From a virus (taxonomy: Duplodnaviria; Caudoviricetes), in the IMG/VR virus record IMGVR_UViG_3300031749_000016, positions 1-38,484 of that record: a DNA stretch of 38,484 nt. One strand, given 5' to 3'. The notes beneath the pieces are model-generated. The model was not told the origin of the DNA. It did no database searches and saw only the letters and a program-made list of their open reading frames with translations. Positions 1,406 through 27,900 of the stretch are shown here, piece by piece. The translations under genes were made by a program, and so were the position numbers. Each line of letters begins with the position of its first letter. Positions within the stretch are counted from its first letter, which is position 1.

Positions 1406-1902
1406 GAAAGAAAAAAGTCAACAGAGATGAAGTTATTGAATTTGCAAGAGAACTTTATCTAACGCCTAATGAAAAAGGATTGCACTATTATTCCCTTCAA
1501 CAGATAGCAGATGAGATTCAACAGAAGTTCAACATCAAGTATACAAGATACAATATTTTTAAGTGGGCTAAGAAATTTAACTGGGATTCTCTCTGGGAAG
1601 AAGCAGTCAAAACAGGAATAACCATTGCAATACAAAAAAAGATAGAAAAGGATAGATCAATCACAGAACAATACAAAGACGCAATCCTCGAAAACAAAAA
1701 AAGGGATGTCGAAATAACGAATGATTTGAAAAATCTTGCTTACGAATTTATAAAAAGCAAAGGTTTCACATCAGTAAGCGAAGCTTTGAAGGCAATTGAA
1801 CTCGCATTAAAATATAGTGGAGAATTCAAAGACGAAGATATTGGTAAAATAACAAGAATTATTTACGAGGTAGTGGATGGAAAAAACAATTCAATTGAGT
1901 AG
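1402..1902 (+). CDS. terS: Terminase small subunit
   Basis: N-terminal HTH (SLQQIADEI...IFKWAKKFNW); directly upstream of and overlapping terL. Confidence 0.75.
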   Translation: MRKKKVNRDEVIEFARELYLTPNEKGLHYYSLQQIADEIQQKFNIKYTRYNIFKWAKKFNWDSLWEEAVKTGITIAIQKKIEKDRSITEQYKDAILENKKRDVEITNDLKNLAYEFIKSKGFTSVSEALKAIELALKYSGEFKDEDIGKITRIIYEVVDGKNNSIE

Positions 1903-3154
1903 ACCTCAGATGGAAGTAATAAGGTCTAATAAAACTATAACGGCATTTATTGGAGGAACAGGTTGCGGTAAAACTTTTATTGGCAGTTTATGGTCCATCA
2001 AAATGCTTAATGAAGGTTCAGGAATGATAGTTACTCCTTCATATCCTATGCTGATAAGATCAACTCTTCCAACATTTCTTAAAAATATAAAAGATACCAT
2101 ACTAAGCGGAATTTATTTAGAGCAAAAAAAGATTTATGAATCAAGAAATGGAAATGTCATTTACTGGGGTAGTGCTGATAATCCTTTAAGTTTAGATGGA
2201 CCTCATTTAGATTGGGCTTGGATAGACGAAGCAGGATTAACAAATATCACTACATTTGATGTAGTGTTATCAAGAATTGCGATGAAAAATGGAAGATTAT
2301 TGATCACAACAACTCCAAATCTAATAAAAACAAGAAATTGGATATTTACCGAACTTTATGAAAAAAGAGATCAAGAATATCTTAAATATATCCACTCAAT
2401 TAGTATTGACAATCCTTTTTATTCAAAAGAAAAATTTGACCTTTTGAAAAAGATATTGGATGAAAGAACTTTTGCAGTTAGACATTTGGCGCAATTTATA
2501 AGAAGTAGTGCATTAGTTTACTATGAACTATTGGACAAGATATTCATTGACCCTTTTGTTTTGGACAATACTTGGGATAGATATGTAGTTATAGACCCAG
2601 GAGTTATTTATGGCATTTTATTCATAGCGAAAAAGGATGAAAAAATAGTTGTATACAACGAATACAAAACTAAAGGAGACAAAGTTTACACTGCTAATGA
2701 AATAGCGAACATTATTCTAAACATTGAAAAAAATATAAAACTTATTATTCACGACCCTGCAAGAATATTGGATGCTGTAAATTTAAAAAAAGAATTGAAA
2801 GATATGGGATATGATGTAAATTTTTATGCTCCTGAAATTAGAGATGTAAGAGAAGGAATAGAAAAAGTTATTGAACTAGGCAAAACAAATACTCTCAAAG
2901 TTTTTAATAATTTGAGAAGATTAAAGGATGAATTTGAAAGTTATCATAGACCAATTGATGAAACAACAGGACAAATTTTAGACGAAAAGCCTGTAAAGGA
3001 AAATGATGATCTTTTAGATTGCTTAAGATATGGTATAATTTTCTTATGTAAGAAAACAATTTTTGCTTCTGCTGTTATAGCTGAAAATCAAAAAATATTA
3101 AGAGGAAGCGAAGGCTTGAAAAACTTTATAAATAGGAGAAAATATGGACAATAA
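1877..3154 (+). CDS. terL: Terminase large subunit
   Basis: Walker A GGTGCGKT, Walker B AWIDEA, coupling motif TTTP, nuclease acidic residues VIDPG and DDLLDCLRY. Confidence 0.95.
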   Translation: MEKTIQLSRPQMEVIRSNKTITAFIGGTGCGKTFIGSLWSIKMLNEGSGMIVTPSYPMLIRSTLPTFLKNIKDTILSGIYLEQKKIYESRNGNVIYWGSADNPLSLDGPHLDWAWIDEAGLTNITTFDVVLSRIAMKNGRLLITTTPNLIKTRNWIFTELYEKRDQEYLKYIHSISIDNPFYSKEKFDLLKKILDERTFAVRHLAQFIRSSALVYYELLDKIFIDPFVLDNTWDRYVVIDPGVIYGILFIAKKDEKIVVYNEYKTKGDKVYTANEIANIILNIEKNIKLIIHDPARILDAVNLKKELKDMGYDVNFYAPEIRDVREGIEKVIELGKTNTLKVFNNLRRLKDEFESYHRPIDETTGQILDEKPVKENDDLLDCLRYGIIFLCKKTIFASAVIAENQKILRGSEGLKNFINRRKYGQ

Positions 3155-4478
3155 TTTAGATGATAGAACTTTTAGAAGATTAACAACAAGTCAAAGGGAT
3201 CTTCCTAGTTATCAATTTGATAGACAAGCAAGAATAGTTTACTATTTATGGCAAAACAATGCGATGGCAAGCAGAATAATTGAATTGATGGTTGATTTCA
3301 TAATGGGAGATGGGATAACTTGGTCTGTACCTTGTAAAAAATTAGATGACATTTTATGGGAGTTTTGGAGTGATCCAGACAATGATTTTGAACTTTTTCA
3401 ATATTCAATGGTTGAGGAACTTTTTTTGTATGGAGAATTCATTTTACCTTTAATGGTCTTAGAACCATCTGGAAAAGTCAAAACAGGATACATAGATCCA
3501 ATAAATGTTATTGAAGTTGTTAAGAATCCTTTCAATTCGAGAATAGCAGAAGAACTTAGAATAAAGGTAGAAAATGAAAGCGGTATTCCTGAAGAAAAGG
3601 TTGTAAAAGTTATTAAAAGAGATAAAGATGTTCTAAGCAAAACATTCGGGAAACTAATAGGAGATGTAATGCTTTTTCAAATTAACAAAGTATCAAATGC
3701 AAGCAGGGGTATAAGTGAATTATATAGACTTGCCGATTGGATAGATGGTTTGGATAATTCATTGTTTTCAAGTTTGGAAAGAATATATCATCTAATGTCC
3801 TATATCTGGGATGTAACGATTAAAGATGTTTACGATAAAAAACAGCTTGAAGAGATAAAACAGGAGATTTTAAAAGAACCATTTACACCAAGTTCAATTC
3901 ATATCCATTCAGATAAACAAACAATCAATACCCTTTCTCCAGATTTAAAGTCAGAACAAATAACAAATTATGTTGAACTGCTTAGAAACTTTGTTTTAGG
4001 TGGAGCAGGAATACCAACTTCCTGGTATGGAGAGGGAGATATAACAAGAGCAACAGCACAAGAACAAGGAACGCCGGTATTAAGAAAGTTGAGAAGAAAA
4101 CAGAAGTATGTTAAAAAAATATTTGAAAAAATATTTGAATTTGTAAAAGAAAAGGCAATTGATTATAAAAGAATTGAAAAAGGAAAAGATTATCAAAACG
4201 AGGATGAATTGAATATAGAAGTTGTTATGTCAGAAATAGCAGGAAAAGATATTGTAAGTTTAATTAATTCAATGGATGGGATTGTGAAAGTTTTAGTAAT
4301 GGCTGAAAATCAAGAGTGGATTAGTAAGGATAGAGCAAGAGAGATTTACAACCAATTTATGAAAAGAATTTTAGATATAGACATTGAACCAGAAAATGAA
4401 ATAGAGGATAAACTCGCTGAAGCAGAGAATAAAAAAATATTAGAGTACTATGAAAGAATTAAACATAAGGAACCTTAA
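3144..4478 (+). CDS. Portal protein
   Basis: 444 aa after terL; LFLYGE, RGISEL and GIPxxWYG-type motifs. Confidence 0.88.
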   Translation: MDNNLDDRTFRRLTTSQRDLPSYQFDRQARIVYYLWQNNAMASRIIELMVDFIMGDGITWSVPCKKLDDILWEFWSDPDNDFELFQYSMVEELFLYGEFILPLMVLEPSGKVKTGYIDPINVIEVVKNPFNSRIAEELRIKVENESGIPEEKVVKVIKRDKDVLSKTFGKLIGDVMLFQINKVSNASRGISELYRLADWIDGLDNSLFSSLERIYHLMSYIWDVTIKDVYDKKQLEEIKQEILKEPFTPSSIHIHSDKQTINTLSPDLKSEQITNYVELLRNFVLGGAGIPTSWYGEGDITRATAQEQGTPVLRKLRRKQKYVKKIFEKIFEFVKEKAIDYKRIEKGKDYQNEDELNIEVVMSEIAGKDIVSLINSMDGIVKVLVMAENQEWISKDRAREIYNQFMKRILDIDIEPENEIEDKLAEAENKKILEYYERIKHKEP

Positions 4479-5961
4479 AGGATACAAAGATGCTTCATCA
4501 AGATTTATTAAAGCACTATCATCCAATATAAAACAAATGAGCGATTATGTGAACAACTTATTAACTAGTCTTCCATCAGATAAATTTAATGTTTTCTACT
4601 ATACTCAAATTAAAAATCAACTTGATGAATATTCTAAAATATTAGGTGATAAAATAGAAAAAGATTATGAAGAAACTTTGAATCAACTTCAAACTGCAGC
4701 TATGGATAAATTAGGTAAAAACATTGATACTGCAGGAATCAAAGGATATATGACTCCATTTTTATCTCCAGAGATGATAAAAGAATTTTCAAGTATATCA
4801 GCAGAGTATGTGAAAAATATTCCTAACGAAATACAAAATGAAATTGAAAAAACATTGCGAATATCAGCATTATCAGGCGACACGGTTTTTGATATTCAAA
4901 AAAAACTTGGTGGAAAACTTGAAGGCTATAAAGGAGTATTCAAAACAGGAGAAAACAGAGCAAAAGCAATAGCAATGAATGAATTGTCAAGGGCTTATTC
5001 AAATATGGATTGGCAACAAATTCAGGAATTAGGCAGTAGATTAGAAGGTGTCGCACAAGTATATAAGGTCTGGCATTCAAACAAAGACGAAAGAGTTAGA
5101 CCAGCACATTTAGAAGCAGATGGGCAGGAAGTATTGTGGAATGAACCTTTCATAGTGAATGGAGAAGAATTGATGTATCCAATGGATCCAAATGGAAGTC
5201 CTGGAAACACAATAAATTGTAGATGTTGGATGACTGTAAAAATTGTCCCGATTGAGGAAGAAAAAGATTCATTCATTGATAAAATGAGCGATGAAGAGAT
5301 AATCACTTCTTTTATGAAAATGGATTTATTCGATTTACTTGATAATTCATACAGAGCCTACCAAAATGACATTATATTCAAAGATCTTCCTAGTAGTTTA
5401 AAATCAATATTTTTCAATCTAAAAACAGAATATCCAAAATTCTTAAGAAAATGTTTGAAAGGGTCAGGTTTTGAAGATGCAAAAGAAGTTAAGTCCTTTT
5501 TGAAAATACTATATCGAACAAGTATGGAAAATGAAAGTGCAAGTAGTTATGGTGATCGGGCTTTTGAAAAATACTTTGATAGTAATACGGATCTTATTAA
5601 AAAACTTAAAAATTTCACCTGGAATGCACTCAAAGAATTAGGTTTGGTACAAAATGAAAAAATTACATTGTATAGAGGAGTAAACAAAGGTGCTTTATAT
5701 GAATCAGGACCGGAAGGAGAAGAACAACTTAAAGCTGAATATACACCATGCAATAAATATTTTGAAAGTTGGAGTATAAGTAAAAAAGTTGCCTCAACTT
5801 ATAGCAGTGGTTACATACTAACAAAACAATTCACCAAAGATGAGATATTGTTAGTCCCTGATTTTGTATCATTTGCGAGCTTTTACAATCAAGAAATAGT
5901 GATTTCAGCAAAAACTATGAAGATAAAAGGGCTAAAAGGTGATATGTTTCATTTAGAATAG
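4450..5961 (+). CDS. MuF/SPP1 gp7-like minor head protein with C-terminal ADP-ribosyltransferase-like domain
   Basis: MuF motifs KVWHS..DERVRPAH..DGQ, YPMDP, INCRC; C-terminal LYRG / ESWS / QEIV triad. Confidence 0.8.
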   Translation: MKELNIRNLKGYKDASSRFIKALSSNIKQMSDYVNNLLTSLPSDKFNVFYYTQIKNQLDEYSKILGDKIEKDYEETLNQLQTAAMDKLGKNIDTAGIKGYMTPFLSPEMIKEFSSISAEYVKNIPNEIQNEIEKTLRISALSGDTVFDIQKKLGGKLEGYKGVFKTGENRAKAIAMNELSRAYSNMDWQQIQELGSRLEGVAQVYKVWHSNKDERVRPAHLEADGQEVLWNEPFIVNGEELMYPMDPNGSPGNTINCRCWMTVKIVPIEEEKDSFIDKMSDEEIITSFMKMDLFDLLDNSYRAYQNDIIFKDLPSSLKSIFFNLKTEYPKFLRKCLKGSGFEDAKEVKSFLKILYRTSMENESASSYGDRAFEKYFDSNTDLIKKLKNFTWNALKELGLVQNEKITLYRGVNKGALYESGPEGEEQLKAEYTPCNKYFESWSISKKVASTYSSGYILTKQFTKDEILLVPDFVSFASFYNQEIVISAKTMKIKGLKGDMFHLE

Positions 5962-5970
5962 GAGGTGAAA

Positions 5971-6207
5971 ATGATTAAGTATAAAAATCTTTTTGGAGAG
6001 TATGAATTCAATGAAAAAACAAAGGAATTAATATTTAGACCAAATTATATGAAGAGAGTTTTTAAATACAAAGGACTTGATGATCTTGTTGAAGGAAAAG
6101 GAAACAATTTGAAATACGATTATCAAATAGTAAGCAAAGCAAGATATGGTTTAGGCGAAATCTATAAAAAGTATAAATTTAATATGGAGGAGTTAAGAAA
6201 TGTATAA
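5971..6207 (+). CDS. Hypothetical protein (possible immunity partner of the MuF toxin)
   Basis: AGGAGG RBS before ATG 5971; lies directly after the toxin-like domain. Confidence 0.5.
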   Translation: MIKYKNLFGEYEFNEKTKELIFRPNYMKRVFKYKGLDDLVEGKGNNLKYDYQIVSKARYGLGEIYKKYKFNMEELRNV

Positions 6208-6538
6208 AAAGATTCATTTAATAACAGACCTTATGGAAGCGGTTGGAGATACACCTTTATATTCTTCCAAATTTGGACTTCCTACTGCTTGCAAAGATCA
6301 TACTTGGCAAACTATAGTATCAGCAAGCGAAGGAAAAGAACCTACTGCATTATCAATAAAATTGGAAGGAAGCATAGATGGTGTAAATTGGTTTACTTTG
6401 GATTCAACAACTAACACATCAGGTGAAACAAAATACATAACAGGTAAAGTTGTAGATTTTATAAGATGTAAAGTTGAAACTTCAACTTTACCTTCAGGTT
6501 CTGATGCTGTTGTGAATGTTTGGTATATAGGAAAATAA
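6200..6538 (+). CDS. Small beta-sandwich protein, probably virion-associated
   Basis: GGAGG RBS; KLEGSIDGVNWFTL...FIRCKV jelly-roll-like pattern. Confidence 0.5.
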   Translation: MYKKIHLITDLMEAVGDTPLYSSKFGLPTACKDHTWQTIVSASEGKEPTALSIKLEGSIDGVNWFTLDSTTNTSGETKYITGKVVDFIRCKVETSTLPSGSDAVVNVWYIGK

Positions 6539-6540
6539 AA

Positions 6541-6711
6541 ATGTCAAATGAATATATTTATCAACACACTTTTGCAGAACCAAATGATTTTTCAACCACT
6601 TTTTTTGATAAGAATTACGATAACACTTTTTTATATGAAAAAATTATTGATAAAATAAATGTGATAATAGAAGAACTTGAAGAACTTAAAAAACTAATAA
6701 ATAGTTTTTAA
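6541..6711 (+). CDS. Hypothetical protein
   Basis: ATG 2 bp after the upstream stop; C-terminal coiled coil. Confidence 0.5.
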   Translation: MSNEYIYQHTFAEPNDFSTTFFDKNYDNTFLYEKIIDKINVIIEELEELKKLINSF

Positions 6712-6723
6712 AGGAGGAAAATT

Positions 6724-6903
6724 ATGACTAAAAAGAAAAAAGAAGAAAAGGAAGAAATTAAAGAGATTAAACCTGTTGAGGCAGATAAATTAGATTTGAA
6801 CACCATAACATTTATAACTAAAAGAAGAATTGACCATAACCATACAGAAATTGTTTACCATTTCAAAGATGGAACATCAAGTAGTAAAATTATAAATAAA
6901 TAA
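6724..6903 (+). CDS. Hypothetical 59-aa protein (not in ORF track)
   Basis: AAGGAGG RBS, ATG 6724, MTKKKKEEKEEIKE...KIINK, TAA 6901-6903. Confidence 0.7.
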   Translation: MTKKKKEEKEEIKEIKPVEADKLDLNTITFITKRRIDHNHTEIVYHFKDGTSSSKIINK

Positions 6904-6925
6904 CTAAAAGAAAGGAGGTGCTCTT

Positions 6926-7438
6926 TTGAAAAAATTTTTCAATGTAAAAACTATTGCTCTATGCGGTGTTATTGCAGGTCTTAACATTGTTCTTACTTTA
7001 TTTTTTCAACCAATTGCTTATGGTCCACTACAATTTAGATTAGGAGAAATAACTGCTTGTTTTGGTATCTATGGAATTCCATACATACTAGCAGGCATAT
7101 TAAGTGGAATACTAGTAAATCTATTTAGTCCTTTCAATCTTCTATGGGAAGTAGTTATAGATACACCAATTTTTTTGATTGCACAAGTTGTTTTGTATAT
7201 TATTCTTAAAAAACTTTCTGCCAGAATTGATAAAAACAAACTTGCTTTATTATATTTACTTGGAGTTGTAATTTTGGTTGGTATTGTAGTTGGAAATATG
7301 CTTCATTTTACTATTGGATTACCTTTTGGCATAACATTTTTAGAAATAGTATTGAGTGAATCTCTTACGCTATTCCCCGGATATTTTTTGATTGTTAGAC
7401 CTGTTGCAAGGATTCTTAAACTAGAAATGTTTGCATGA
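6926..7438 (+). CDS. queT: QueT-family queuosine precursor transporter (ECF S-component type)
   Basis: Strong RBS plus TTG start; about 5 hydrophobic helices; signature PIAYGPLQFRLGE and G.L..NLFSPF. Confidence 0.82.
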   Translation: MKKFFNVKTIALCGVIAGLNIVLTLFFQPIAYGPLQFRLGEITACFGIYGIPYILAGILSGILVNLFSPFNLLWEVVIDTPIFLIAQVVLYIILKKLSARIDKNKLALLYLLGVVILVGIVVGNMLHFTIGLPFGITFLEIVLSESLTLFPGYFLIVRPVARILKLEMFA

Positions 7439-10400
7439 AAAAAAGGAGCTTGAGGGAGAGATTTATTATTTATCTTTCAGTCTCTCCCCCAATGGTCAAA
7501 AAATTATACAACGATTACAATCTAAAACATTTTCTTGTTTCATACAAATATCTTAAAAACCTAAGTAGTAGTAATCTAGAGTTTCTTGATTGGGTAAAAG
7601 AAAGACAAGTAAAGGATCCTCAATTTTATTTAATGATGGACAGCGGAGCTTTTAGTAATTTTGTTGCTGGTAAACAAGTAGTAAAAGATAGTGAATACAT
7701 AGATTTTATAAAGAAGTATGGTGATTGTTTTGATGAAGTTATAATGCTTGATAGACAGAAACCAAAGATAAATGAAGAAATATATGAATCATTGTATAAA
7801 GGTATTTCTTGGTATGTAGATCATACGGGAGGAAAACCAGAAAACTATCCAAAAACATTTAATCTGTGGAAAAAAGAAGAAAAAGTTGGTGTTGCTGGTG
7901 ATAGATCATCTGATTCCAATCCTATAACATATGTAAATATGATAACTAAAGGTAGGAAAACCAAAGAGAGTTTTGACATCAATACAATTGCAAAACTCAG
8001 AAAAATATCAAATGAATTAAAAACAAAAACTCATTATTTCGGCACAATCAATAATAAGATTTTAACAGGAGCACAACCACATTCAACGGATATTAGTTCA
8101 ACAGGGGCAGAAATTGGACAACTTATGTATCTAGTGAAAAACGACGAAGGACAATACATCAAAAAATGGATTCATTACAGGAATCCTGACCTTCCAAAAG
8201 AAGTCAAAGAAATGTTAAACAAATTATCTGAAAAAGAAGCTCCATCTACGGCAAGAAAAATATATAATTTCAAAGTTTTATCAAAACTCGAGGATTTGAT
8301 AAACAAAGGAAAATTCGCTTCTAAAATTGATTGGGATAATCTAAAAGAGGATGTTTTTGAATTTGAAGAAGATTATTACAAAGATTTAAAGGAAGGTATA
8401 GTTTTACCTGACCTACCTTACAAAACAATGTATCAAGTTGAGGGTCTTAAAAATAATATTAGAATAACATTTCTTGGCACAAAAGGAGAGATTGAAGAAG
8501 AAAACAACAATCATAAAAAAAACACATCTATACTAATAGAACATAAACATAAAAATATTTTGATTGATTTCGGATATTCTCATAAAGGAAAATTTTTTGA
8601 CATTGATCCAGATATTCTTTTTATAACTCACGCACATCCAGACCATATTGGTGGACTTCCTGAAACAATAGATATCCCTGTTGTTTTATCAGAGAAGACA
8701 CTAAAACTAATGAATAAATATAGATTTGAAGATCCTCATACGGAAGAAAGGGGTAGTTTTTTTGGTTGGTTAGAATACGAAATGATACCAGTGGAACATT
8801 CAATACTTGCTCCCGCTAATGGATACATTTTAAATGTCGATAACAAAAAAATAGGTATCTTCCCTGATTTTCTTAAAATCAAAGAATTAAGCAAACTAAA
8901 AGATTTGGATTTATTGATTGCTGATGGCAGTTCTATAAAACAAAACATTGAAAGAAAGTACAATATAGGTCATCAATCAATGCAAAATACATTAGATATG
9001 GCAAAGGATTTAAATATCAAAAAGGTAGTTTTTATTCATTTTGGAAAAGAAGTTGTTGAAAAAGGAAACGAGAATACACTGAAGGAATTATCAAGTAGTG
9101 TCCCTTTTATCTTAGCTAATGATGGAGATTCGCTTAAAATTGAAGAGAGTTTAGATTTCAAAACAGATCAAGACCTACAAGAGAGTTTTGAAGAAACCAA
9201 AAAAGAACTACTGAAAAGAGGTATTCTAAACCAAGATGTGAAAGCAATTACATATATACCTCATTTTGTTTGTTTAGTTGGTTCAAAAGCAAAAGGAATT
9301 GATGACGAAAATTCAGATTGGGATATAGTTATAAGAAAACAAAATAGAGATGAAAGTGTAGAATTATTGGTAAGAAATTACTTCGGAAAAGATAAAAACT
9401 ATCATTTCATTTATTCACCAACAGGACCTCACGGAGATTATATACCACTATTCGATTTGAAATTAATACCTAAACCATTTGAATTAATAAAAGTCGAAGA
9501 AGATTTTAAACCTATGAAACTTTATACACCACCAAAAATGGGTAGTGCCTATAGTTTTGAAGAGTTTTACGATATAAATGATTTATACGAGAATTGGGCT
9601 AAACCTTATCTTGATAGAGGAGAAACTTTATTCATAGAAACAAAAATCAATGGTTGGAGAACTACCATTCATAAACTTGGAAACGAAAAAGGTATGTTTT
9701 TTGAAGGCACAGAGAGGAATAGATTAGAATTTTTTCAAAAATTGAAAAAAATCATAGAAAACATTGATGATGACTTTATTTTGGACGGGGAATTAGTTGG
9801 TAGAAGAAAATCAAATAACGAAATTATACCAAGAAAAGATCTTGCACTTTTTAACTCAAATGAAAACATAGATTGCGATAGTTTTACGACAAGTGAGGGA
9901 GAGGAGGGATATATTGATGTTGTATTGTTTGATATCCCTTATTACAACAGGGATATTTCGGAATTACCACTGATAGAAAGAAAAAAATATCTTAAGAACT
10001 TTGATAAATACAAATATTTTTCAATAGTAAAATCAATTGAAGTAAAAGACAAAGAAAGTTTCTTAAAAGCGGTTAAAGAGGTATCAGAAGAACAAGGCAG
10101 TGAAGGAGCGGTTGTTAAAACAGCAAATTCAAAATATACGGAAGAAGAAATTCCTGATTGGGCTAAGTTTAAAAAAATATTAGAATTCAAAGTAAAAGTG
10201 ATCGATAAATTAGAAACAAAAGATAAAAATGCTTTCAATTACATTGTTAGTTATACAAAGGATGGAAAAGAATTGGAACTTTGCAAAACAATGAATACAA
10301 AAATTGATGCAAACAAAGGTGATATTTTAACATTAACTGCAGAAGAAATAATTATTAATGATGACCTAACCATTTCGGCTCAGATTCCGAGAGTTAGAGA

Positions 10401-10929
10401 TTTGGATTTAAGTAGAAAAGAACCTGATAGAATACAAGATATTGTTTACAAAGCATACAAATTTGGACTACTACATTGTAGCGATGATATAAAGAAAAAA
10501 TTCTTTGAAAAATACAAATTAAAAGAAGGATGGATTACATATCAGGGTAGAAGAATACTTATCAATGATATGTCAAATGAAACAACATTTAGTATAAGAA
10601 AATCATATGCAACAGAAAAAAGGAAATTTATTGAATCTAATGTATCAGGAGAAAAACACGCACTAAGACATTGGAAAAGTAAGGAAGAAATGAATAAAGC
10701 AATAGACAATGCAATTAAAGAAGGGATTCTATTTTCTGGAAAAGACCAATCTGGTAGGACAAGAAATCTTTTCTATAATAAAAGCGATAGAACTCTTGTA
10801 ATATGTGGAGAGAAAGGAATTTTTAATTCATATAGAGTGGATGTACCGAATCCTGAAGGTTACATATACAAGATAACCAATAATTTTAAAGTTGGTTTAG
10901 GAGGGAAATTGCAGTATGAACGAGTATGA
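7435..10929 (+). CDS. 1164-aa polyvalent protein: TGT/DpdA-like barrel, MBL-fold hydrolase, Pol-beta-like nucleotidyltransferase, ATP-dependent ligase, toxin-like tip
   Basis: MMDSGAFS (7639), THYFG, STDISS; ITFLGT, IDFG, THAHPDH (8626), VEHS, GH, FIH; LVGS.A.G..SDWD (9274-9324); ligase motifs ETKINGWR, ILDGEL, LFDI, EGAVVK, WAKFK plus OB-like region; WITYQGRRILI then HALRH domain. Confidence 0.8.
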   Translation: MKKRSLRERFIIYLSVSPPMVKKLYNDYNLKHFLVSYKYLKNLSSSNLEFLDWVKERQVKDPQFYLMMDSGAFSNFVAGKQVVKDSEYIDFIKKYGDCFDEVIMLDRQKPKINEEIYESLYKGISWYVDHTGGKPENYPKTFNLWKKEEKVGVAGDRSSDSNPITYVNMITKGRKTKESFDINTIAKLRKISNELKTKTHYFGTINNKILTGAQPHSTDISSTGAEIGQLMYLVKNDEGQYIKKWIHYRNPDLPKEVKEMLNKLSEKEAPSTARKIYNFKVLSKLEDLINKGKFASKIDWDNLKEDVFEFEEDYYKDLKEGIVLPDLPYKTMYQVEGLKNNIRITFLGTKGEIEEENNNHKKNTSILIEHKHKNILIDFGYSHKGKFFDIDPDILFITHAHPDHIGGLPETIDIPVVLSEKTLKLMNKYRFEDPHTEERGSFFGWLEYEMIPVEHSILAPANGYILNVDNKKIGIFPDFLKIKELSKLKDLDLLIADGSSIKQNIERKYNIGHQSMQNTLDMAKDLNIKKVVFIHFGKEVVEKGNENTLKELSSSVPFILANDGDSLKIEESLDFKTDQDLQESFEETKKELLKRGILNQDVKAITYIPHFVCLVGSKAKGIDDENSDWDIVIRKQNRDESVELLVRNYFGKDKNYHFIYSPTGPHGDYIPLFDLKLIPKPFELIKVEEDFKPMKLYTPPKMGSAYSFEEFYDINDLYENWAKPYLDRGETLFIETKINGWRTTIHKLGNEKGMFFEGTERNRLEFFQKLKKIIENIDDDFILDGELVGRRKSNNEIIPRKDLALFNSNENIDCDSFTTSEGEEGYIDVVLFDIPYYNRDISELPLIERKKYLKNFDKYKYFSIVKSIEVKDKESFLKAVKEVSEEQGSEGAVVKTANSKYTEEEIPDWAKFKKILEFKVKVIDKLETKDKNAFNYIVSYTKDGKELELCKTMNTKIDANKGDILTLTAEEIIINDDLTISAQIPRVRDLDLSRKEPDRIQDIVYKAYKFGLLHCSDDIKKKFFEKYKLKEGWITYQGRRILINDMSNETTFSIRKSYATEKRKFIESNVSGEKHALRHWKSKEEMNKAIDNAIKEGILFSGKDQSGRTRNLFYNKSDRTLVICGEKGIFNSYRVDVPNPEGYIYKITNNFKVGLGGKLQYERV

Positions 10930-11782
10930 AACATTTGTAAAAGAACTATTAGAATTCGAAAACAACGATCCTTTATCTATGGCATTGGTTTTGGAAATAT
11001 GGAGCGACGGAAATGTTGATTTAGATGAAGAAACTTTGAAAAAAGTAAAGGAGGTTGCTCTTGATTGGTACGATAGTGAAAAAATAGATAAACTATTCAA
11101 TAAAAGAGAAACAAAAAAAGAAGGGGAAGATGAAGAAGAAGGAAACTGGAAAGATTTTGAACCATATGTAAAAAAAGATGATGAGGGTGAATTTGTTCTT
11201 CAAGAACACGAAAGAGGACTAACAGAAGAGCAGGCAAAATCAGGAAGAAGATTTGAAGGCAAAGAAAATATACATTGTGATTTAAGATTGAAATTCAAAG
11301 ATAATGATTTTTTGATAGGTTTTACTTTAGCAACGCCTGGAACAGCACACGGGATAAACAAAATAGTAGAACCAGATAAAGGAAAGGCATTGCTTGTTGG
11401 AGTAAAAAAAAGACAACCAATTGCTTGGCTTGATGTAGGAAAAGGAAAAGATATGTTCAAATCAGGTGCAGTTGAAATGAATTTGTATGGAAATAAATAC
11501 AAGGCAGATTTATCAAGTTCAGGTCAAGTTGGTTCAACGGCATACACTTGGAGCAGGTTTACAGCAATTGATTATGGAAAAGTAAAGGCAGGTAAACAAG
11601 ATAAACATTACAAAGAATTTTTTTTTGATGGAAAATATGGTATACTGAAAGGTAGATGGATAGTTCAAGGTGTACCATCTGAAAATATGAAAGAAAAAGG
11701 TGCGGAAATAGATAAAAGAATTTGGTTTTTTAGCAAAGGAGGTGATAATGGAACAGATACTAATGGACAAGACAATAAATGA
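10916..11782 (+). CDS. LigD-type 3'-phosphoesterase-domain protein with acidic helical N-terminal extension
   Basis: FVLQEH...HCDLRL, IDYGK and LKGRW match the LigD PE pattern FVxQxH...HxDxRL...DxG...LxGxW. Confidence 0.72.
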   Translation: MNEYETFVKELLEFENNDPLSMALVLEIWSDGNVDLDEETLKKVKEVALDWYDSEKIDKLFNKRETKKEGEDEEEGNWKDFEPYVKKDDEGEFVLQEHERGLTEEQAKSGRRFEGKENIHCDLRLKFKDNDFLIGFTLATPGTAHGINKIVEPDKGKALLVGVKKRQPIAWLDVGKGKDMFKSGAVEMNLYGNKYKADLSSSGQVGSTAYTWSRFTAIDYGKVKAGKQDKHYKEFFFDGKYGILKGRWIVQGVPSENMKEKGAEIDKRIWFFSKGGDNGTDTNGQDNK

Positions 11783-14054
11783 ATATATACCAATAGTTGT
11801 TAAAGAAGCGGATAAAGAAGGCAAAAAATGGAAAGTATTAGTAATCCAAACAGGATTGAGTAAAAACGGAAATCTGTATACACAAGAAGTTCTCCAAAAT
11901 AGTGCTAAAAAATTTAATAATGTAAAAGTTTTTGCTTATGAATTTTCAGGAAAATATTTTGAACACTTACCTGAAAATCTTGAACTTGATAAAGGGTATA
12001 TAAAAAATCTTGTAGGAGATTTAAACGATTGCAGATTTGAAGAGATAGATGAAAATACTTCTGGAATAGTTGCTGATTTGAATGTATATAATGATTTTTA
12101 TAGAAAATTGTTCAAAAATATGTATGATGAAGGTAAAATGGATGTTGTTGGTTTTTCAGCGGTTATGGAAGCAGAAGTAGAACCAGAATATTTTCAAAAT
12201 AAACAAGTAAATGATGTGAAACAAATATATAATGTAAAATCAGTAGATGTTGTATCCTCACCAGCTGCAGGTGGAAGGATACTTAACATAATCGAAAGTC
12301 AAAGGAGGAAAGAAGTGGAAAAAGAAAAGATAATCAAAAACATTGAAGCACTTGCTCCTGAATTACTTGAGGGCAAGAATATTGAAAGTATTGAGGAAAA
12401 TGAGTTAATAGATTTATTAGCAGAAGCAGTCGAGAAAAGTTTAGAATCAAAAAAGAAAAATAATCCAGAAGATAAAAAGAAAGAAGAATCAAAAGAAGGA
12501 GTCCCTGAAGAGATATTAATCCTGAATAAAATTAAAGAACTCTTAAAATCAAAAAACACTGATGAAGCTATGAAAATGATTGATGATTTCATAAAGGTAA
12601 AAGCAAAAGGATATGGTTATCCCTCACCATCCTATGGTTATCCTGCACCAAAAGAGAGTTTAGATGATATCAAAAAAACAATGGAAGAACTAAATAGTTT
12701 TAAAACGATGTATTATCTTGAAAGATACTTGAATGAATCAAATCTACCTGAACCAGTCAAAGAAAAAATAAGAAAAATGTTTGAAGGTAAAACTTCAACT
12801 GAAGAGGAAATAAAAAAGGTGATAGATATGGAAAAAGAAAGTTTAACAAAAATTGTTGAAAGTTTAGGTGTCCCTTATGGATTTACAGGACAGGATAAGG
12901 CTAAAGTTATTCTTGATGAATACGATAAAAAACAAAGAGCAGTAGAGCTTATGGTAGGATATAAACCTGATGAAAGTGAAAAAAGTTTATATCAAGGAAT
13001 AAAACCTTATACTGGATTAAGAGAGGCATATACAGATATAACAAAAGATTATGAAGTTAGTTTTTCTCCAAAACACTTTTTGAAACTTTCAGAGTCATTC
13101 CCTGGAGGATTTGTGTCAACAAACTTCCCCCAAATACTTGGTGATGCAATAAACAAAAGACTTATGAAAGAATATCCTATGGCAACTTTAGATTTATGGA
13201 GAAAGTTTTGTTCTGTTGTCCCTGTTAAAGATTTCAATGAACAAAAGATAATAAGATGGGGAGCGCTTGGAACATTAAGTTCAGTCACAGAATCAAACAA
13301 CTACAATGAATATACAATTGGCACTGGAAGTCTTGAAGAATATGCTACATATTCAGCTGATACAAAGGGAGTTGTGGTATCAATAACAAGACAGATGATA
13401 TTATCGGACAACCTTAAATTTGTTGAGAGAATACCAAAAATGATTATTAGAGCAGCTGTCAGAACAATAAATCAATTTGCTTTTGATCTCTTGCTTTGTT
13501 ATGGAGGAACACCACCTGCAATCAATGGAGCTGACATATATGATAATCATCATTTATATGATGCAACCAATCATAGAAACCTTCTTACTGATGCTTTGGC
13601 CTATGATTCACTTCTAACAGCAATGAAAAAAATGAAACTACAATATGTCGATGCAATGGATAGCTCATCTGAAGTTGATTACATTGGCATCTCTCCAAAA
13701 TTCCTTGTAGTCCCTCCAGATTTAGAACCAACAGCATTGACATTAATCAATAGTGATAGAATACCTGGTAGTGTTGACAATGATGTAAACATTTTAAAAG
13801 GCAAACTTGAAATAATTGTTTCACCTTATCTTAGAGGAGATTCTGACAACTGGTATGTTGTTGCTGACCCAAATGAAACAGATACAATTGAAATAGGTTT
13901 TGTGCAAGGAAAAGAAACTCCTGAAGTTATAGTTCAAGACAATCCTCTTATGGGGTATGTTTTCAATGCTGATAAAATTTCATACAAAGTAAGATATGAA
14001 TTTGGAGGTTGTGTTGCAGATTACAGAGCCTTCATTGGATCAATTGTTTCATAA
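11748..14054 (+). CDS. Prohead protease - scaffold - major capsid protein fusion (Mu gpT-like capsid)
   Basis: Protease motifs GLSKNGNLY, EH, GFS, SVDVVSSPAAGG; charged scaffold; capsid motifs STNFPQIL, PKFLVVPPDLE, WYVVADP, KVRYEFGG..DYR; RBS favours ATG 11748. Confidence 0.9.
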   Translation: MEQILMDKTINEYIPIVVKEADKEGKKWKVLVIQTGLSKNGNLYTQEVLQNSAKKFNNVKVFAYEFSGKYFEHLPENLELDKGYIKNLVGDLNDCRFEEIDENTSGIVADLNVYNDFYRKLFKNMYDEGKMDVVGFSAVMEAEVEPEYFQNKQVNDVKQIYNVKSVDVVSSPAAGGRILNIIESQRRKEVEKEKIIKNIEALAPELLEGKNIESIEENELIDLLAEAVEKSLESKKKNNPEDKKKEESKEGVPEEILILNKIKELLKSKNTDEAMKMIDDFIKVKAKGYGYPSPSYGYPAPKESLDDIKKTMEELNSFKTMYYLERYLNESNLPEPVKEKIRKMFEGKTSTEEEIKKVIDMEKESLTKIVESLGVPYGFTGQDKAKVILDEYDKKQRAVELMVGYKPDESEKSLYQGIKPYTGLREAYTDITKDYEVSFSPKHFLKLSESFPGGFVSTNFPQILGDAINKRLMKEYPMATLDLWRKFCSVVPVKDFNEQKIIRWGALGTLSSVTESNNYNEYTIGTGSLEEYATYSADTKGVVVSITRQMILSDNLKFVERIPKMIIRAAVRTINQFAFDLLLCYGGTPPAINGADIYDNHHLYDATNHRNLLTDALAYDSLLTAMKKMKLQYVDAMDSSSEVDYIGISPKFLVVPPDLEPTALTLINSDRIPGSVDNDVNILKGKLEIIVSPYLRGDSDNWYVVADPNETDTIEIGFVQGKETPEVIVQDNPLMGYVFNADKISYKVRYEFGGCVADYRAFIGSIVS

Positions 14055-21240: not shown

Positions 21241-23566
21241 AGTTAAACTTGCAAAAAGGATCCTGTTAGATAATTGTTCTTATGGAGATTCTTATTGGTA
21301 TGTTCATAATTGGATTTGTAATGTAGAAGATAAATTTTATATTGTTTGGTGGGATGAAAATTCTAATCAAACTAAATTAATAGGTTATGACTACAAAGGA
21401 AATAAGTTGTTAGAGAAAAATCTTTACAATGGTTATTTCAGTGATTATGAAATGATTTATTTCAATGAAAAAATCCATATTGTAGCAATTATATATGGTG
21501 GTTATGAAGAAGATACTATTCTTAAATACTTCTCATATGATTTATCCACAGGAAATCTATATTCTCAAACTTTGAAAAATATATCCTATTTCAGCGACTT
21601 CGGAGGTCAACATCTTTCTAATTTTACTATTATGAACGGAAAACTCTATATTGTAGTATTGATCCCTGATGTTTATATGCACGGTTCTATATACAATCAG
21701 CGATATAAAACATATATATACGAAATAACAAATGTAATTACAGAACATTTGATTGACTACAAAGACAATAAACTAAAACATCTTGATGTTTATTCTGATA
21801 GTTATTTTGGATATTCTCCATATAGAATTCCAATGCAATTCTATTACTATAATATGCGATTTTATAGTTGTAGGACAATGTATTTACCAAGTTATCATAA
21901 GTTTTTTTTCAATAATTACGACGGATATTTTGGTAATGTATGGAGTGCTAATACAACATATCCATCAAACACTTTTAGAATCTGTCCTAATTGGATTCCT
22001 AATATGGCCTATGAACCATCCGCTGGATACTACAATGGGAATCTACCTCAATTAGAACACGATTACAATCTTGGAGATATCATTAGATATTACGATGGAA
22101 ATTGGCAAAACATCTACTACGATACAAGAAACGACATCATACTAAAATGTGCTTCACCAGGAAAATCAGGATCAGATTATCCTAATTTAAAAACAAAAAT
22201 ATATGGAGATTCTTTTTTTTGGGGAACTGCTATATTTACACTATACTATGCAAGAAGCTATACCATTGCATGTTCAGCATCCAACACGCTAACAACGGGT
22301 TCATCCCAACCAATTTTCTATACTTATGGAACACTGATAGGAGATGGTGTTTACGATGATGGAACATTAAAAATGTCCAATGGGCAAGTTAGACCTCTAC
22401 GATGGATCTCAGAAACAAGATATTATAGATCTGAGTACATAATTGAAAATGGTAAAATATTTTATGTTTACCAAGTACCTTCAACAGATCCTTACAAATC
22501 AGGCATTACAGGAAGTTCTAAACCTCCTTTTGATACTGCTAATCATTACGACGAAATAACAGATGGAACAATAACTTGGAAATGTTTTGATCCTGTTTAT
22601 GCATTTTATTATCCACCTTTAACACAATTTTTACCTAACTACAATGAAGAAGAATATTTAGATGATCTATATTTTTACTACAAATGCAATTACAATGCTG
22701 TTCCATCAAATATGGTTATAAGAGTAGTAAAAGAAAGCGATCTTAATGTGTACTATGATTTAACTCCAGATTCAGAATACAAATTTAAATACAATTCATA
22801 TAATTTCAATGATACTTTTTTTATGGCAGTTTTATCAAATGGGCTTGGAACTTTTGAAAGACCTTTGATATATAGAAAACACCTATACAACATTCCTAAT
22901 TTAACAAAAATATCATCAACCAATAATTATTTGTATATCAATTTTGCGAATAATGCCGATTTCAACAATGATCCAACTTGTCCTGGTAAACCTTACGATA
23001 CTGTGATATTAGATAATAATCTTAATATTTTATTCAAGAAGAATTATTTACCTATGGACGATGAAAATCCTTCTGAAACAAGATGGTATCAAACATTTAG
23101 AATTCCTAAAAGAGTAGATAATTATATTTTTTTCTCGGAAAATGATTGGAACACCTGGGAAGAAAAAATCAGAAGGTTTACAATAAATATCGATGGAACA
23201 TTAACAGAGGATTGGTCTAAATCTTTACCCGAAGAAACAACATATAACGATAATTGGTTTTATATTTTGACCAATACTAATAAATTACAATTCTTTTTTA
23301 ATTACAATACTAAAAGTTTTTTAATAAAAGAAATTGATTTGAATGGAGAAAACGGTAAAACTTGGCAATTGTATGTGCCTAATGCAATGAATATGTATAA
23401 AGATGTTTTTACTTCTACTTTTTTTATAGTCAATAATGATGTAATGATTCCTGCATACTATTCTTTCAAAGGTGAGAGTGGAACATATTTAGTAATATTC
23501 ACAAAAGCAAAGGGAGGATTTTTTGCTGTTCCTTTAAAAATAAGAGAATCAGGAGGTAGGAAATGA
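21233..23566 (+). CDS. Putative receptor-binding protein (Tyr/Asn-rich, propeller-like with inserted repeats)
   Basis: 777 aa, last tail gene; internal WxxxTxY and GxSGxxxP...DGTxxW repeats. Confidence 0.6.
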   Translation: MDKVKLAKRILLDNCSYGDSYWYVHNWICNVEDKFYIVWWDENSNQTKLIGYDYKGNKLLEKNLYNGYFSDYEMIYFNEKIHIVAIIYGGYEEDTILKYFSYDLSTGNLYSQTLKNISYFSDFGGQHLSNFTIMNGKLYIVVLIPDVYMHGSIYNQRYKTYIYEITNVITEHLIDYKDNKLKHLDVYSDSYFGYSPYRIPMQFYYYNMRFYSCRTMYLPSYHKFFFNNYDGYFGNVWSANTTYPSNTFRICPNWIPNMAYEPSAGYYNGNLPQLEHDYNLGDIIRYYDGNWQNIYYDTRNDIILKCASPGKSGSDYPNLKTKIYGDSFFWGTAIFTLYYARSYTIACSASNTLTTGSSQPIFYTYGTLIGDGVYDDGTLKMSNGQVRPLRWISETRYYRSEYIIENGKIFYVYQVPSTDPYKSGITGSSKPPFDTANHYDEITDGTITWKCFDPVYAFYYPPLTQFLPNYNEEEYLDDLYFYYKCNYNAVPSNMVIRVVKESDLNVYYDLTPDSEYKFKYNSYNFNDTFFMAVLSNGLGTFERPLIYRKHLYNIPNLTKISSTNNYLYINFANNADFNNDPTCPGKPYDTVILDNNLNILFKKNYLPMDDENPSETRWYQTFRIPKRVDNYIFFSENDWNTWEEKIRRFTINIDGTLTEDWSKSLPEETTYNDNWFYILTNTNKLQFFFNYNTKSFLIKEIDLNGENGKTWQLYVPNAMNMYKDVFTSTFFIVNNDVMIPAYYSFKGESGTYLVIFTKAKGGFFAVPLKIRESGGRK

Positions 23567-24216
23567 GAGATATTAAATATATTGTTATCCATCATTCCGC
23601 AACATCTCCACCAAATGATATTAATACTGCTAAAAACATAATCAAAAGGCAGATGGAAGATTACAATGCAGGAAAGATTATTTCTCCCTACACCAACACC
23701 TATCATTACATGATAACTGCAAATGGTGAAGTTGTTCCTTGGATCTGTGAATATAAAGTTTCAGGGCATTGTGGAAATGATGATATAAATAAAATATCCA
23801 TTGGTATCTGTCTTTTAGGAAACTTCCAAAAAGAAACACCAACAAAAAATCAATACAAAACACTTTTGAAAATAAGTAAAGAATTGTATAATAAATATAA
23901 ATTCAAAGATATTTTAGGACATAGAGATATAATTGAAACTGAATGTCCTGGAAATAATTTGTATAACTTGATACCTAATATTAGAAAGGAGGTTTTTATG
24001 GCACCAATAGAAAACTGGGAATCAGAAGCGATAAGATTTTTGTATGAGAGAGGCATTATTAGAGACTTAGATATACATCTGCAAAATCACAACCAACCTT
24101 TAACAACTGCGCAAGTATCTGCTATAATAATGAATTTAGTAAATTATTTTGAAAGTAATGTTATCAAAGACGCAGTCAAAACTGCACTAATTGAAATCTT
24201 TAGGAGTATAAAATGA
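23563..24216 (+). CDS. Endolysin, N-acetylmuramoyl-L-alanine amidase (Amidase_2) with SLH-like C-terminal domain
   Basis: IVIHHSA, YHY, GHC, SIGICLLGNF, GHRD..TECPG; C-terminal W...AI..LYERGII...PLTTAQ. Confidence 0.9.
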   Translation: MRDIKYIVIHHSATSPPNDINTAKNIIKRQMEDYNAGKIISPYTNTYHYMITANGEVVPWICEYKVSGHCGNDDINKISIGICLLGNFQKETPTKNQYKTLLKISKELYNKYKFKDILGHRDIIETECPGNNLYNLIPNIRKEVFMAPIENWESEAIRFLYERGIIRDLDIHLQNHNQPLTTAQVSAIIMNLVNYFESNVIKDAVKTALIEIFRSIK

Positions 24217-24509
24217 ACGAATGGATCAAAATTCTTGCAGATTATGGATTAAGCGGAGTTCTTGCAATTTGTATTGTTTACTTGGTTAGAAATATAAAAT
24301 ATTCAAACGGCGATAAAAAGATAGAAAGTTTAACAGATATATCAAAGGATCAACGATACAAATTAGATTCAATTTCTAAATGTCTACAAGATGTTTCTAA
24401 TGATTTAAAACAACTATCCAATGACATAAGAACTTACACAAAAGAAACTTCTAATCTATCATCCAAAATAGAGATTCTAATAAAACTTATGGATGTTAAA
24501 AATGGATAA
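24213..24509 (+). CDS. Putative holin (single TM plus coiled coil, BhlA/UviB-like)
   Basis: N-terminal TM YGLSGVLAICIVYLV; adjacent to the endolysin. Confidence 0.55.
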   Translation: MNEWIKILADYGLSGVLAICIVYLVRNIKYSNGDKKIESLTDISKDQRYKLDSISKCLQDVSNDLKQLSNDIRTYTKETSNLSSKIEILIKLMDVKNG

Positions 24510-24759
24510 GTTTGATATTTTAAAAACAATTCTTGAAAATATTGATCCGATTGTAGATACTATTATTACAGGGATTGAAACATCACCAAAGAGAATAGAA
24601 TATTCTCAAAAGTTATGGAATATACTATTACAAATCTCTCCACCAGAGGAAATTTACTATTTGATTTATCAATTTTATCAATTGCATCCTAAAGAATTTT
24701 TAGCATTAATCGAGAAATTCAAACAAGATGTTATAAAAATATTGGAACAAGGAGGATAA
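24502..24759 (+). CDS. Hypothetical protein
   Basis: Overlap-coupled ORF. Confidence 0.55.
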   Translation: MDKFDILKTILENIDPIVDTIITGIETSPKRIEYSQKLWNILLQISPPEEIYYLIYQFYQLHPKEFLALIEKFKQDVIKILEQGG

Positions 24760-24761
24760 TA

Positions 24762-25775
24762 ATGTTAACAAACAACAAAGAAAAAGCAAAAGAAATTTTA
24801 AAAACTTATAACAGAAAAATGGGTTTGATTTATAAAAAAATTACTTCTTTGAAACCTTTATCATCTTTGAAACTTCCAGAAACTTTACCTTCAAAAGTGG
24901 ACTTAAGAAATCAAATGACACCTATTAAAGACCAAGGACCTTTAGGAACTTGTGCTTCTTTCGCAGGAGCAGGGGCAAAGGAATACTATGATAGCAAAGA
25001 ATACAACAAGATGATGGACTTAAGCGAGTATTATTTATACTACTATGCTAAAAAACTTGATGGTTATCCGAACGAGGAAGGAACTACTCTCGAAGCAATT
25101 GCTTATGCTCTACAACTTTATGGAATCTGTGAAGAAAATTATTATCCATACAATCCTAACCATTATCCGGAAGATCCTCCATCTGATATTGCAAATAAAA
25201 ATGCTAAAAAATACATTATAACCAATTTTTATTCCTTAGATTCTGTTGACGATATTAAAAAAGCACTATATCAGGAAGGTGCAATATATATAGGAGTTTT
25301 GGTAGCAGAAAATTTTATGTCTCCTAAAAATGGTTTTATTCCGATACCAGACGGAAATGTGTTGGGCGGGCACGCCCTTTGTGTTGCAGGATATGATGAC
25401 TCACTTATCTCGCCTTGGGGAAACAAAGGTGCTTTCATAGTCAAGAACTCTTGGGGAACAAGTTGGGGGGACAAGGGTTACTGCTACATTCCTTATGATG
25501 TGATGAATTGGGTAGATAAAGATGGGTACATTCCTTTTTATTGGGGAGGAATTGGAATGATTGATTATATAGAACCACAAAAGATAACGATTGAAATGTG
25601 GATAGGAAAAGATACTGCAAAAGTAAATGGAAAAGATGTTAAGTTAGACCAACCACCAATAATTGACCCGAAATCAAATAGAACTTTAATTCCAGTTAGA
25701 TTTGTAGCAGAAAATTTAGGCTGTCAAGTTGATTGGGATGGAACACATAAAAAAATAACAATAAAACAATTATAA
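24762..25775 (+). CDS. Papain-like (C1) cysteine peptidase with C-terminal copper-amine-oxidase-N-like stalk domain
   Basis: VDLR, DQGPLGTC, GGHALCVAGYDD, KNSWGTSWGDKGY; MWIGK..AKVNG...PPII..RTLIPVRFVAENLG..VDWD. Confidence 0.92.
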   Translation: MLTNNKEKAKEILKTYNRKMGLIYKKITSLKPLSSLKLPETLPSKVDLRNQMTPIKDQGPLGTCASFAGAGAKEYYDSKEYNKMMDLSEYYLYYYAKKLDGYPNEEGTTLEAIAYALQLYGICEENYYPYNPNHYPEDPPSDIANKNAKKYIITNFYSLDSVDDIKKALYQEGAIYIGVLVAENFMSPKNGFIPIPDGNVLGGHALCVAGYDDSLISPWGNKGAFIVKNSWGTSWGDKGYCYIPYDVMNWVDKDGYIPFYWGGIGMIDYIEPQKITIEMWIGKDTAKVNGKDVKLDQPPIIDPKSNRTLIPVRFVAENLGCQVDWDGTHKKITIKQL

Positions 25776-27509: not shown

Positions 27510-27510
27510 G

Positions 27511-27900
27511 ATGGAAGTAGTAAAAAAATTAAATCTAAGTAGTAATTGGAAAATGGAAAAAGGATGGAGATTAGATTTAGGATTAAACTCATTTGGAATA
27601 ATGAAGGAGGAAGGAGAAATAGAAAAATATAACGATAGACTTTATCCTATTATCCATTTAGTTGAATACGATATTGGAGGGTGGGTGTTTAGTAATGTGG
27701 ATGTAATAATAATAACTAACAAACAAATAAACCTAGAAGAAATAAACACATTGGATGATATTTTAAATATTTTGGATTTAAATTGGAATTTGGATGACTT
27801 TATAGTTAGTCCTACTGATAAAACGAGGGTGCTAGAAAAGGGTGATCCAGAAGCGATTTTTTTTACAAATTTTCATAAATTTCTAATAGAAGGGGATTAA
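27511..27900 (+). CDS. Early protein, paralog family A copy 1
   Basis: LSxxWKxxKGWxLDLG...GWxF...PTDKTxVL. Confidence 0.8.
   Translation: MEVVKKLNLSSNWKMEKGWRLDLGLNSFGIMKEEGEIEKYNDRLYPIIHLVEYDIGGWVFSNVDVIIITNKQINLEEINTLDDILNILDLNWNLDDFIVSPTDKTRVLEKGDPEAIFFTNFHKFLIEGD

Follow-up and report, generated by a model that had tools for sequence, protein, structure and literature searches.

The locus examined here raises the question of how a tailed phage could use a 7-deazaguanine base for which it carries no synthesis genes. The window (the whole 38,484-nucleotide stretch that we analyzed, IMGVR_UViG_3300031749_000016, positions 1-38,484) is a tailed-phage genome of ~30% G+C, with nearly every gene on the + strand, in which queT, the gene for a predicted importer, overlaps the start of a head-module polyprotein whose N-terminal domain resembles DpdA transglycosylases. 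We hypothesize that a 7-deazaguanine base imported by QueT would be swapped by the DpdA-like domain for some guanines of the progeny DNA near the time of packaging and would thereby give partial protection from restriction, a reading that rests on sequence comparison and that we consider probable, with real room for doubt.

Family and target of the N-terminal domain

Neither Pfam nor NCBIfam matched the N-terminal domain, nor did DUF6610/DpdA4; phrog_887 matched it at E 3.9e-10. A scan of 1.84 billion representatives with the domain returned 10 matches, and an alignment and profile were made from the query and nine relatives (the near-identical P0001 and P0019, a short, repeat-like match, were left out, and P0002 was added). 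This profile scored CAjan DpdA at E 3e-30, 9g DpdA at 1e-24, and Dp-1 DpdA at 2e-17, as against 0.77 for the E. coli TGT, the one tRNA TGT scored directly besides the PDB set, in which the bacterial DpdA 7ui4 (E 0.14) was the sole sequence match at E<=10. By sequence, then, the domain groups with phage DpdA and not with E. coli TGT. A word-index search with the domain alone gave nothing at 165-525 aa, phmmer of the domain against PDB gave nothing useful, and Pfam PF23859 (DpdA) was uninformative as a test, as it missed the 9g DpdA also. The earlier note had staked its case on a TGT-like TIM barrel, and this barrel was seen in the predicted model (pLDDT 78.5), whose structure matches were arcTGT (Z 17.5), bTGT (16.5), Cap10 (16.2), QTRT2 (16.1), and DpdA (15.9), the next fold scoring 12.0. 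A quick tree of 63 rows placed 12 head-module domains and two unlabelled rows in one group (SH-aLRT 91).

The active site appears complete. D69, D106, H130, H200, and D219 each have an identical counterpart in the aligned 9g, CAjan, and Dp-1 DpdA proteins, and the three invariant active-site aspartates (D69, D106, D219) and the base-reading histidine H130 are intact; the roles of these residues are taken from PMC10164549, which reports the acid/base and nucleophile aspartates to be essential in DpdA, and they were placed by alignment to phage DpdA and by motif order. A CxCxxC zinc motif, present in E. coli TGT, was not found in the domain, which has one Cys, and no candidate for Pfam PF01702 (TGT) was found in the genome, while 14/14 control genomes passed. 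The DpdA1 proteins of 9g and CAjan, the best-scoring validated relatives of the domain profile, also lack the zinc motif; the window domain differs from them in its separate clade, its LFVDH-type motif, its fusion to other domains, and its place in a head rather than a replication module. In PMC6884629, the 9g dpdA gene is reported not to complement an E. coli tgt deletion, and the CAjan dpdA deletion to lose dPreQ0. The domain is under purifying selection (dN/dS 0.089 against the near kin L001), as is queT (0.21), each value being a single comparison since L001 and L002 are identical over both.

The gene context of the relatives points the same way. The nearest relatives of the domain (L016, L036, L020, L008/9) sit in head modules, and in the sister polyprotein P0003 a D12 DNA adenine methylase (Dam-like) stands where P0004 has DpdA, ahead of a shared core of minimal nucleotidyltransferase (MNT) and ligase; a D12 methylase occurs in 4/11 ligase-bearing polyprotein relatives (P0002-P0012). 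The earlier note had left DNA and tRNA equally open as targets. We now think that the target is probably DNA, because of the sequence affinity to DpdA, the missing zinc motif, the gene context, and the exchange with a Dam methylase.

queT and the missing synthesis genes

Members of the QueT family have ~160-170 residues, are hydrophobic throughout, and carry a small-xxx-small motif in helix 1. The window protein fits this description, with 170 residues, hydropathy mostly >1, and a G13-x3-G17 motif that aligns with the A-x3-A of relatives; it matched Pfam QueT with 58.9 bits (cut-off 33.7, E 9.3e-16), and G33, Q36, R38, and E41 are invariant in an alignment with Dp-1 QueT. The substrates of QueT proteins vary by member (preQ1, for some queuine), and the family has a role in bacterial tRNA-Q salvage (PMC11130926). 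The overlap of the queT stop with the polyprotein start, which the earlier note had read off the sequence, was confirmed. As special evidence of coupling it was rejected, because 11/21 overlaps among 44 open reading frames (ORFs) of the window are likewise of 4 bp.

The absence of synthesis genes carries weight because the genome is circularly complete, at ~38.3 kb: positions 1-158 and 38327-38484 repeat each other over 158 bp, within one gene, and differ at a single base, despite a record entry that classes the sequence as linear and 47% complete. The gene that spans the circular join holds many 11-residue repeats of an SDT-R type. The earlier statement that folE, queD, queE, queC, and a preQ1 riboswitch are missing was upheld by the searches made here. 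Pfam gave no match to folE, queC, queD, queE, or queF among the 59 window ORFs; six-frame family searches of the window gave none for FolE, QueC, or QueD; the Dp-1 and 9g Que proteins reached a best E of 0.067 by tblastn; and local profiles of FolE, QueC, QueD, QueE, QueF, and ArcS found nothing. Rfam gave no match in the window at the gathering score, no riboswitch was seen at E<=5 in 5900-7500, and promoter and terminator scans of the same interval stayed at chance level. No tRNA gene was found in the window. A scan of the genome contigs collection returned two short NTase matches only, and no host or prophage was found.

The relatives of the domain are arranged differently. All 21 non-self viral loci carrying it (~17 distinct) have folE in the locus, as do 8/9 metagenome loci of at least 5 kb (29 metagenome loci in all), and queT was found in none of these viral and metagenome loci. 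In the nearest relatives, the synthesis genes lie directly upstream of a DpdA that adjoins or is fused to an XkdF prohead protease: L016 and L036 have queD-queE-folE-queC followed by a DpdA-XkdF fusion, and L008/9 have folE-queC-DUF5591 (ArcS-like) followed by a 1539-residue chain of DpdA, ligase, and XkdF, which in L008 also has an MNT-like part. Since these kin keep folE/queC-type genes directly upstream of DpdA, queT, judged by synteny, holds the slot of the synthesis genes, and it may stand in for the folE/queD/queE/queC block. YhhQ occurs in 3/22 records with DpdA relatives, and all three also have folE. Direct DpdA-XkdF fusions were seen in L016, L036, L008, P0014, P0016, and P0020, of which P0014 has two tandem DpdA-like domains ahead of the protease and P0016 is a single chain of DUF6884, DpdA-like, D12 methylase, and XkdF parts. 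In the complete 95-kb phage L020, folE and dpdA are separated by genes for radical SAM, PAPS-reductase-like, and glycosyltransferase proteins (4432-7953), a set that may lead to a further-modified deazaguanine.

Scanning of viral contigs turned up 29 queT loci, two of them near kin of the window and 27 others; the queT matches L030-L033 of the phages collection, bacterial-chromosome-like fragments with no DpdA, were excluded from this count. A DpdA-type gene lay within ~1.2 kb of queT in 22 of the 27, bearing out the earlier idea that two queuosine-related families side by side are meaningful; 19 had a DpdA1-like neighbor (one of them weak, at 22 bits) and three a DUF6610 gene, while in five, one of them at a contig edge, no DpdA-type neighbor was seen. 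On these sequence counts the pairing is not a matter of chance. DUF6610, equated with DpdA4 in PMC10516641, has been described as specific to archaeal viruses; it stands directly beside queT in L076, L090, and L077 (5758-6942). In L077 terminase genes follow, and neither folE nor queC was seen in this record, which is 94% complete. Gene orders vary, with several of the type ParB-dpdA-queT-terminase and one methylase-queT-dpdA. Ten of the 27 loci hold a full Dp-1-type cassette. Salvage-only queT-dpdA, as far as sequence can tell, is recurrent and not unique to the window, because a pair without folE and without queC occurs in 11/19 records searched whole (4 of the 11 at least 90% complete), and because on the QueT tree the salvage label needs seven changes, at least four of them forced by strong branches (with L076 and L090 then labelled as without DpdA). 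In L095 (6673-6975), a 100-residue ORF between dpdA and queT is marginally QueF-like (E 0.04); the same kind of ORF in L097 (5731-6975) is joined by a QueC-like gene without folE, possibly a partial pathway.

These arrangements have precedents. Phage Dp-1, whose DNA holds dPreQ1 at ~1.7% of G (PMC6884629), has the cassette queF-queC-queD-queE-folE-queT-dpdA, in which, as in the window, queT lies directly upstream of and overlaps dpdA (3306-3803 / 3793-4728), and its DpdA has the same active-site residues. Unlike the window phage, Dp-1 makes the base itself, and its DpdA is a stand-alone protein encoded ahead of replication genes; its QueT and DpdA are only distantly related to the window proteins. 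The 76 DpdA-only phages of PMC6884629 resemble the window in having the transglycosylase without preQ0 synthesis genes, and reliance on host or imported precursor was already proposed for them there; the window differs in having QueT rather than YhhQ as importer and in having DpdA as a domain of a head-module polyprotein. Together with the queT-dpdA overlap in Dp-1, these phages mean that the earlier note overrated the novelty of the salvage-only arrangement. Published work already covers DpdA-only phages, phage YhhQ, and host complementation (among PMC6884629, PMC10516641, PMC10164549, 10.1101/2025.04.06.647259, PMC11130926, PMC5699537, PMC5512222, PMC7824862, PMC9503650, and PMC11996544). 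The word QueT is absent from the main text of PMC6884629, and in titles and abstract openings we found no report of QueT with DpdA in phages or of DpdA/TGT fused to head proteins or a ligase. The salvage strategy is thus known; the unusual part, not developed in the earlier note, is a DpdA inside a capsid-assembly polyprotein with nucleotidyltransferase, ligase, and metallo-beta-lactamase (MBL) domains.

Other domains of the polyprotein and the head module

The head module runs in the order terminase, portal, MuF, four small ORFs, queT, polyprotein, 288-residue ORF, and prohead protease-capsid fusion (Table 1).

Table 1. Features of the queT-polyprotein region and the surrounding head module (window positions)
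Feature	Position	Strand	Basis
Terminase large subunit, portal, MuF (same head module, upstream of queT)	1877..5961	+	profile matches incl. Pfam
Shine-Dalgarno-like AAAGGAGGT ahead of the queT TTG start	6911..6919	+	sequence
queT, 170 aa, predicted ECF (energy-coupling factor) S-component-type importer, QueT family; TTG start	6926..7438	+	Pfam PF06177
ATGA, overlap of queT stop and polyprotein start	7435..7438	+	sequence
Polyprotein ORF, 1164 aa	7435..10929	+	ORF
DpdA-like transglycosylase domain, aa 1-300; D69, S70, D106, H130, H200, D219; one Cys, no zinc motif	7435..8334	+	profiles, model, alignment
Hydrophobic-x-E-[SAG] linker motif at aa 318, candidate prohead-protease site for a putative release of the DpdA domain	8386..8397	+	motif scan
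MBL-fold hydrolase, aa 341-570, HxHxDH intact	8455..9144	+	Pfam Lactamase_B_2 E 9.8e-11
Minimal nucleotidyltransferase, aa 603-681	9241..9477	+	NCBIfam MntA E 0.006
ATP-dependent DNA-ligase-type domain, aa 691-1010, motif I lysine K737	9505..10464	+	Pfam DNA_ligase_A_M E 2.3e-21, RNA_ligase E 5e-6
C-terminal domain, aa 1030-1164, weakly colicin D/RelE-like (BECR) RNase fold	10522..10926	+	Atlas lead 0.88; model
LigD phosphoesterase-like ORF, 288 aa, weak label	10916..11782	+	homolog fused to ligase in P0003, P0004
Prohead protease-major capsid fusion	11742..14054	+	profile matches incl. Pfam

Of the polyprotein relatives, the two closest are P0002, with the same layout as the window, and P0004, without the MBL domain. 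The best NCBIfam label of the MBL domain is RNase Z, far under the cut-off, and NTP_transf_2 is matched at E 2e-5 to 8e-4 in P0002-P0004. The only match of the ligase in the phage collection is the archaeal virus ANMV-1 (L068, 3200-5800; 23%), which has an MNT-like N-terminus too. The C-terminal domain, modeled at pLDDT 67 with Z 5.1-5.3 to the toxin domains of CdiA, colicin D, and YxiD, is preceded by an EGWITYxGRRILI motif and is shared with P0002; in P0003 and P0004 the phosphoesterase-like part is fused to the ligase, and the C-terminal domain seems to have been inserted between these two. We take the motifs of the 288-residue ORF to resemble those of LigD phosphoesterase; Pfam and PDB sequence searches did not confirm this weak label, and Pfam LigD_N found nothing in this ORF and reached no better than E 5e-4 in the L008 polyprotein. 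Like the polyvalent and MuF-linked head cargo of Iyer et al. (2017, PMC5512222), which has many enzyme domains per chain among head genes, shuffled order, a BECR-like C-terminus, and DNA methylase cargo, the window protein is a multi-enzyme chain among head genes whose architecture varies between relatives. It differs in its MNT-ligase-phosphoesterase-like core, and neither "TGT" nor "deazaguanine" occurs in the main text of that paper.

The linkers of these proteins carry a hydrophobic-x-E-[SAG] motif, which is similar to the cleavage rule of T4 gp21. Of the 15 linkers between domains in the window protein and P0002-P0004, 13 have it, compared with 1.9 in shuffles (0/5000), and is enriched in the protease-capsid protein (11 vs 3.7). 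The motif may switch with the protease, a pattern that is no more than suggestive and is driven by close kin: in the XkdF-type set (10 proteins) a K-motif was counted 74 times, with 43 expected, and in 12 other proteins the E-motif was counted 97 times, with 72 expected. Protease-like linker motifs of this kind suggest that modification may be tied to packaging.

Elsewhere in the window are an N6/N4 DNA methylase gene separate from the polyprotein (34699-35520), an amidase endolysin and a papain-like protease with a copper-amine-oxidase N-terminal-type domain (23563-25775), and, in 26919-29103, three similar small ORFs (27511, 27961, 28720) with a common W-x-L-D-L-G motif and no Pfam match, possibly a paralog array.

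From import to protection, and the alternatives

The window bears the marks of restriction pressure. CATG occurs at five sites where ~95 are expected, ACGT is absent, and CTAG, GTAC, GATC, AGCT, GCNGC, ACNGT, and CTNAG are also avoided; CG has an observed/expected ratio of 0.44, and CGT/CGC codons are almost absent. We read the avoidance of G-containing palindromes in this sequence as a sign of that pressure. Tuning of Asn/Tyr/Asp/His decoding through queuosine, an idea of the earlier note, was rejected, since the U-ending preference at these codons (0.71-0.84) is no higher than at other U/C pairs (0.72-0.91).

We propose that QueT, working with host ECF modules, would import a 7-deazaguanine base late in infection. 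The earlier note spoke of scavenged preQ0, preQ1, or queuine; a transglycosylase and an importer without synthesis genes do read as salvage, and of the three bases queuine is the least likely. preQ1 is our first guess because QueT members move preQ1 and Dp-1 DNA holds dPreQ1, and preQ0 is our second. The DpdA-like domain would then exchange the base into progeny DNA by the double displacement of TGT-type enzymes (PMC10164549). As the genes for importer and enzyme both belong to the late head block, we assign this reaction to the producing cell, close to packaging; the prohead protease may free the DpdA domain, and the modified DNA may be partially protected from restriction enzymes in the next host.

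Several points weigh against this proposal. The fold, as modeled, settles the superfamily and not the substrate: the Z scores within the TGT family are mostly tied, and fold comparison failed as a means to separate DNA from tRNA enzymes. Since the query's own kin are part of the profile, its scores indicate affinity to a family rather than direct identity; the domain has diverged strongly, sharing 21-27% identity with its nearest relatives, and direct tblastn of it against GenBank phages found nothing. The phylogeny called for in the earlier note gave the domain a clade of its own but left the deep nodes open, in a quick tree without DpdA2 and DpdA3. The exact queT-polyprotein pairing was seen in a single lineage (the window, L001, and L002). 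The linker motif was chosen after looking, in four related proteins, and is not enriched in seven distant polyproteins. The neighboring MBL, MNT, and weakly RNase-like C-terminal domains keep an RNA role possible. DpdA-only phages are reported as barely modified or unmodified (7-11 at ~0.02% of G, none for Orion; PMC6884629), and continued site avoidance suggests that any protection would be weak or partial.

The same enzyme, acting on DNA, may instead be packaged, cut free, and ejected, acting at entry on the preQ pool of the new host together with the ligase and end-healing domains. The motif in most linkers and its enrichment in the protease-capsid protein, the direct DpdA-XkdF fusions of relatives, and the head-cargo concept (PMC5512222) would fit; we nevertheless find this version unlikely, as queT, like the relatives' synthesis genes, lies in the late block, where base supply would peak in the producing cell, and the linker evidence is post hoc and drawn from related proteins. 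We regard it as distinctly unlikely that the domain belongs, with MBL, MNT, and ligase, to a kit for tRNA repair or protection and acts at position 34 of host tRNA. This reading has the TGT fold, the RNase Z label, the weak RNA_ligase match, and the RNase-like C-terminus behind it, along with the part of QueT in bacterial tRNA-Q salvage (PMC11130926), and it is opposed by the missing zinc motif, the lack of a Pfam TGT match where all control genomes pass, the affinity to DNA-acting DpdA, the failure of 9g DpdA to replace tgt, the absence of any phage tRNA found or special codon bias, and the ArcS-like, glycosyltransferase, and Dam partners in relatives.

A module that is intact but modifies little or nothing in practice, the host pool being small, is a distinctly doubtful account as well: it recalls the unmodified Orion and 7-11 with ~50 per million nucleotides (PMC6884629) and suits the strong ongoing site avoidance and the separate N6/N4 methylase gene, yet both queT and the domain are under purifying selection, and queT has been paired with dpdA repeatedly and independently, with DpdA1-like and DUF6610/DpdA4-type enzymes alike. 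Very improbable, in our judgment, is a counter-defence role in which a Cap10-like barrel binds or diverts 7-deazaguanine bases or deazaguanylated proteins while QueT shifts the precursor pool, directed against type IV CBASS, QatABCD, or Dpd. Cap10 of type IV CBASS (PDB 9ntn) ties with TGTs in fold and likewise has the D-S pair and further aspartates; it partners a nucleotidyltransferase, as an MNT is present in the polyprotein, and it shows that the fold can serve a protein substrate (10.1101/2025.04.06.647259). Cap10, however, is a host defence protein that acts with Cap9 and a CD-NTase on a modified protein, and no Cap9/QueC or CD-NTase was found in the window, whose MNT has only ~80 residues; relatives encode whole synthesis pathways, which fits the writing of a base and not its removal, and the sequence affinity is to DpdA1.

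Beyond our preferred reading, base exchange into progeny DNA in the producing cell, there is a bolder one that we hold only tentatively. In it, this distinct DpdA clade would be prohead cargo released by the protease, rewriting guanines during packaging or just after ejection, while the ligase, nucleotidyltransferase, and phosphoesterase-like parts of the chain would seal abasic or nicked intermediates and the base would come solely through the phage's ECF importer; if true, this would be virion-coupled DNA base exchange.

7-Deazaguanine modification of DNA is post-replicative. With a DpdA clade that is joined to head proteins, and in relatives even to the prohead protease, one can test directly whether the modification is coupled to packaging, which bears on the place and time at which DpdA reaches the phage DNA. 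Should no more than the salvage point stand, the locus would add only modestly to a system already known. The recurring queT-dpdA pairs, which involve two DpdA subfamilies, would let QueT join YhhQ as a salvage route of phages and would link phage restriction resistance to the community supply of Q precursors.

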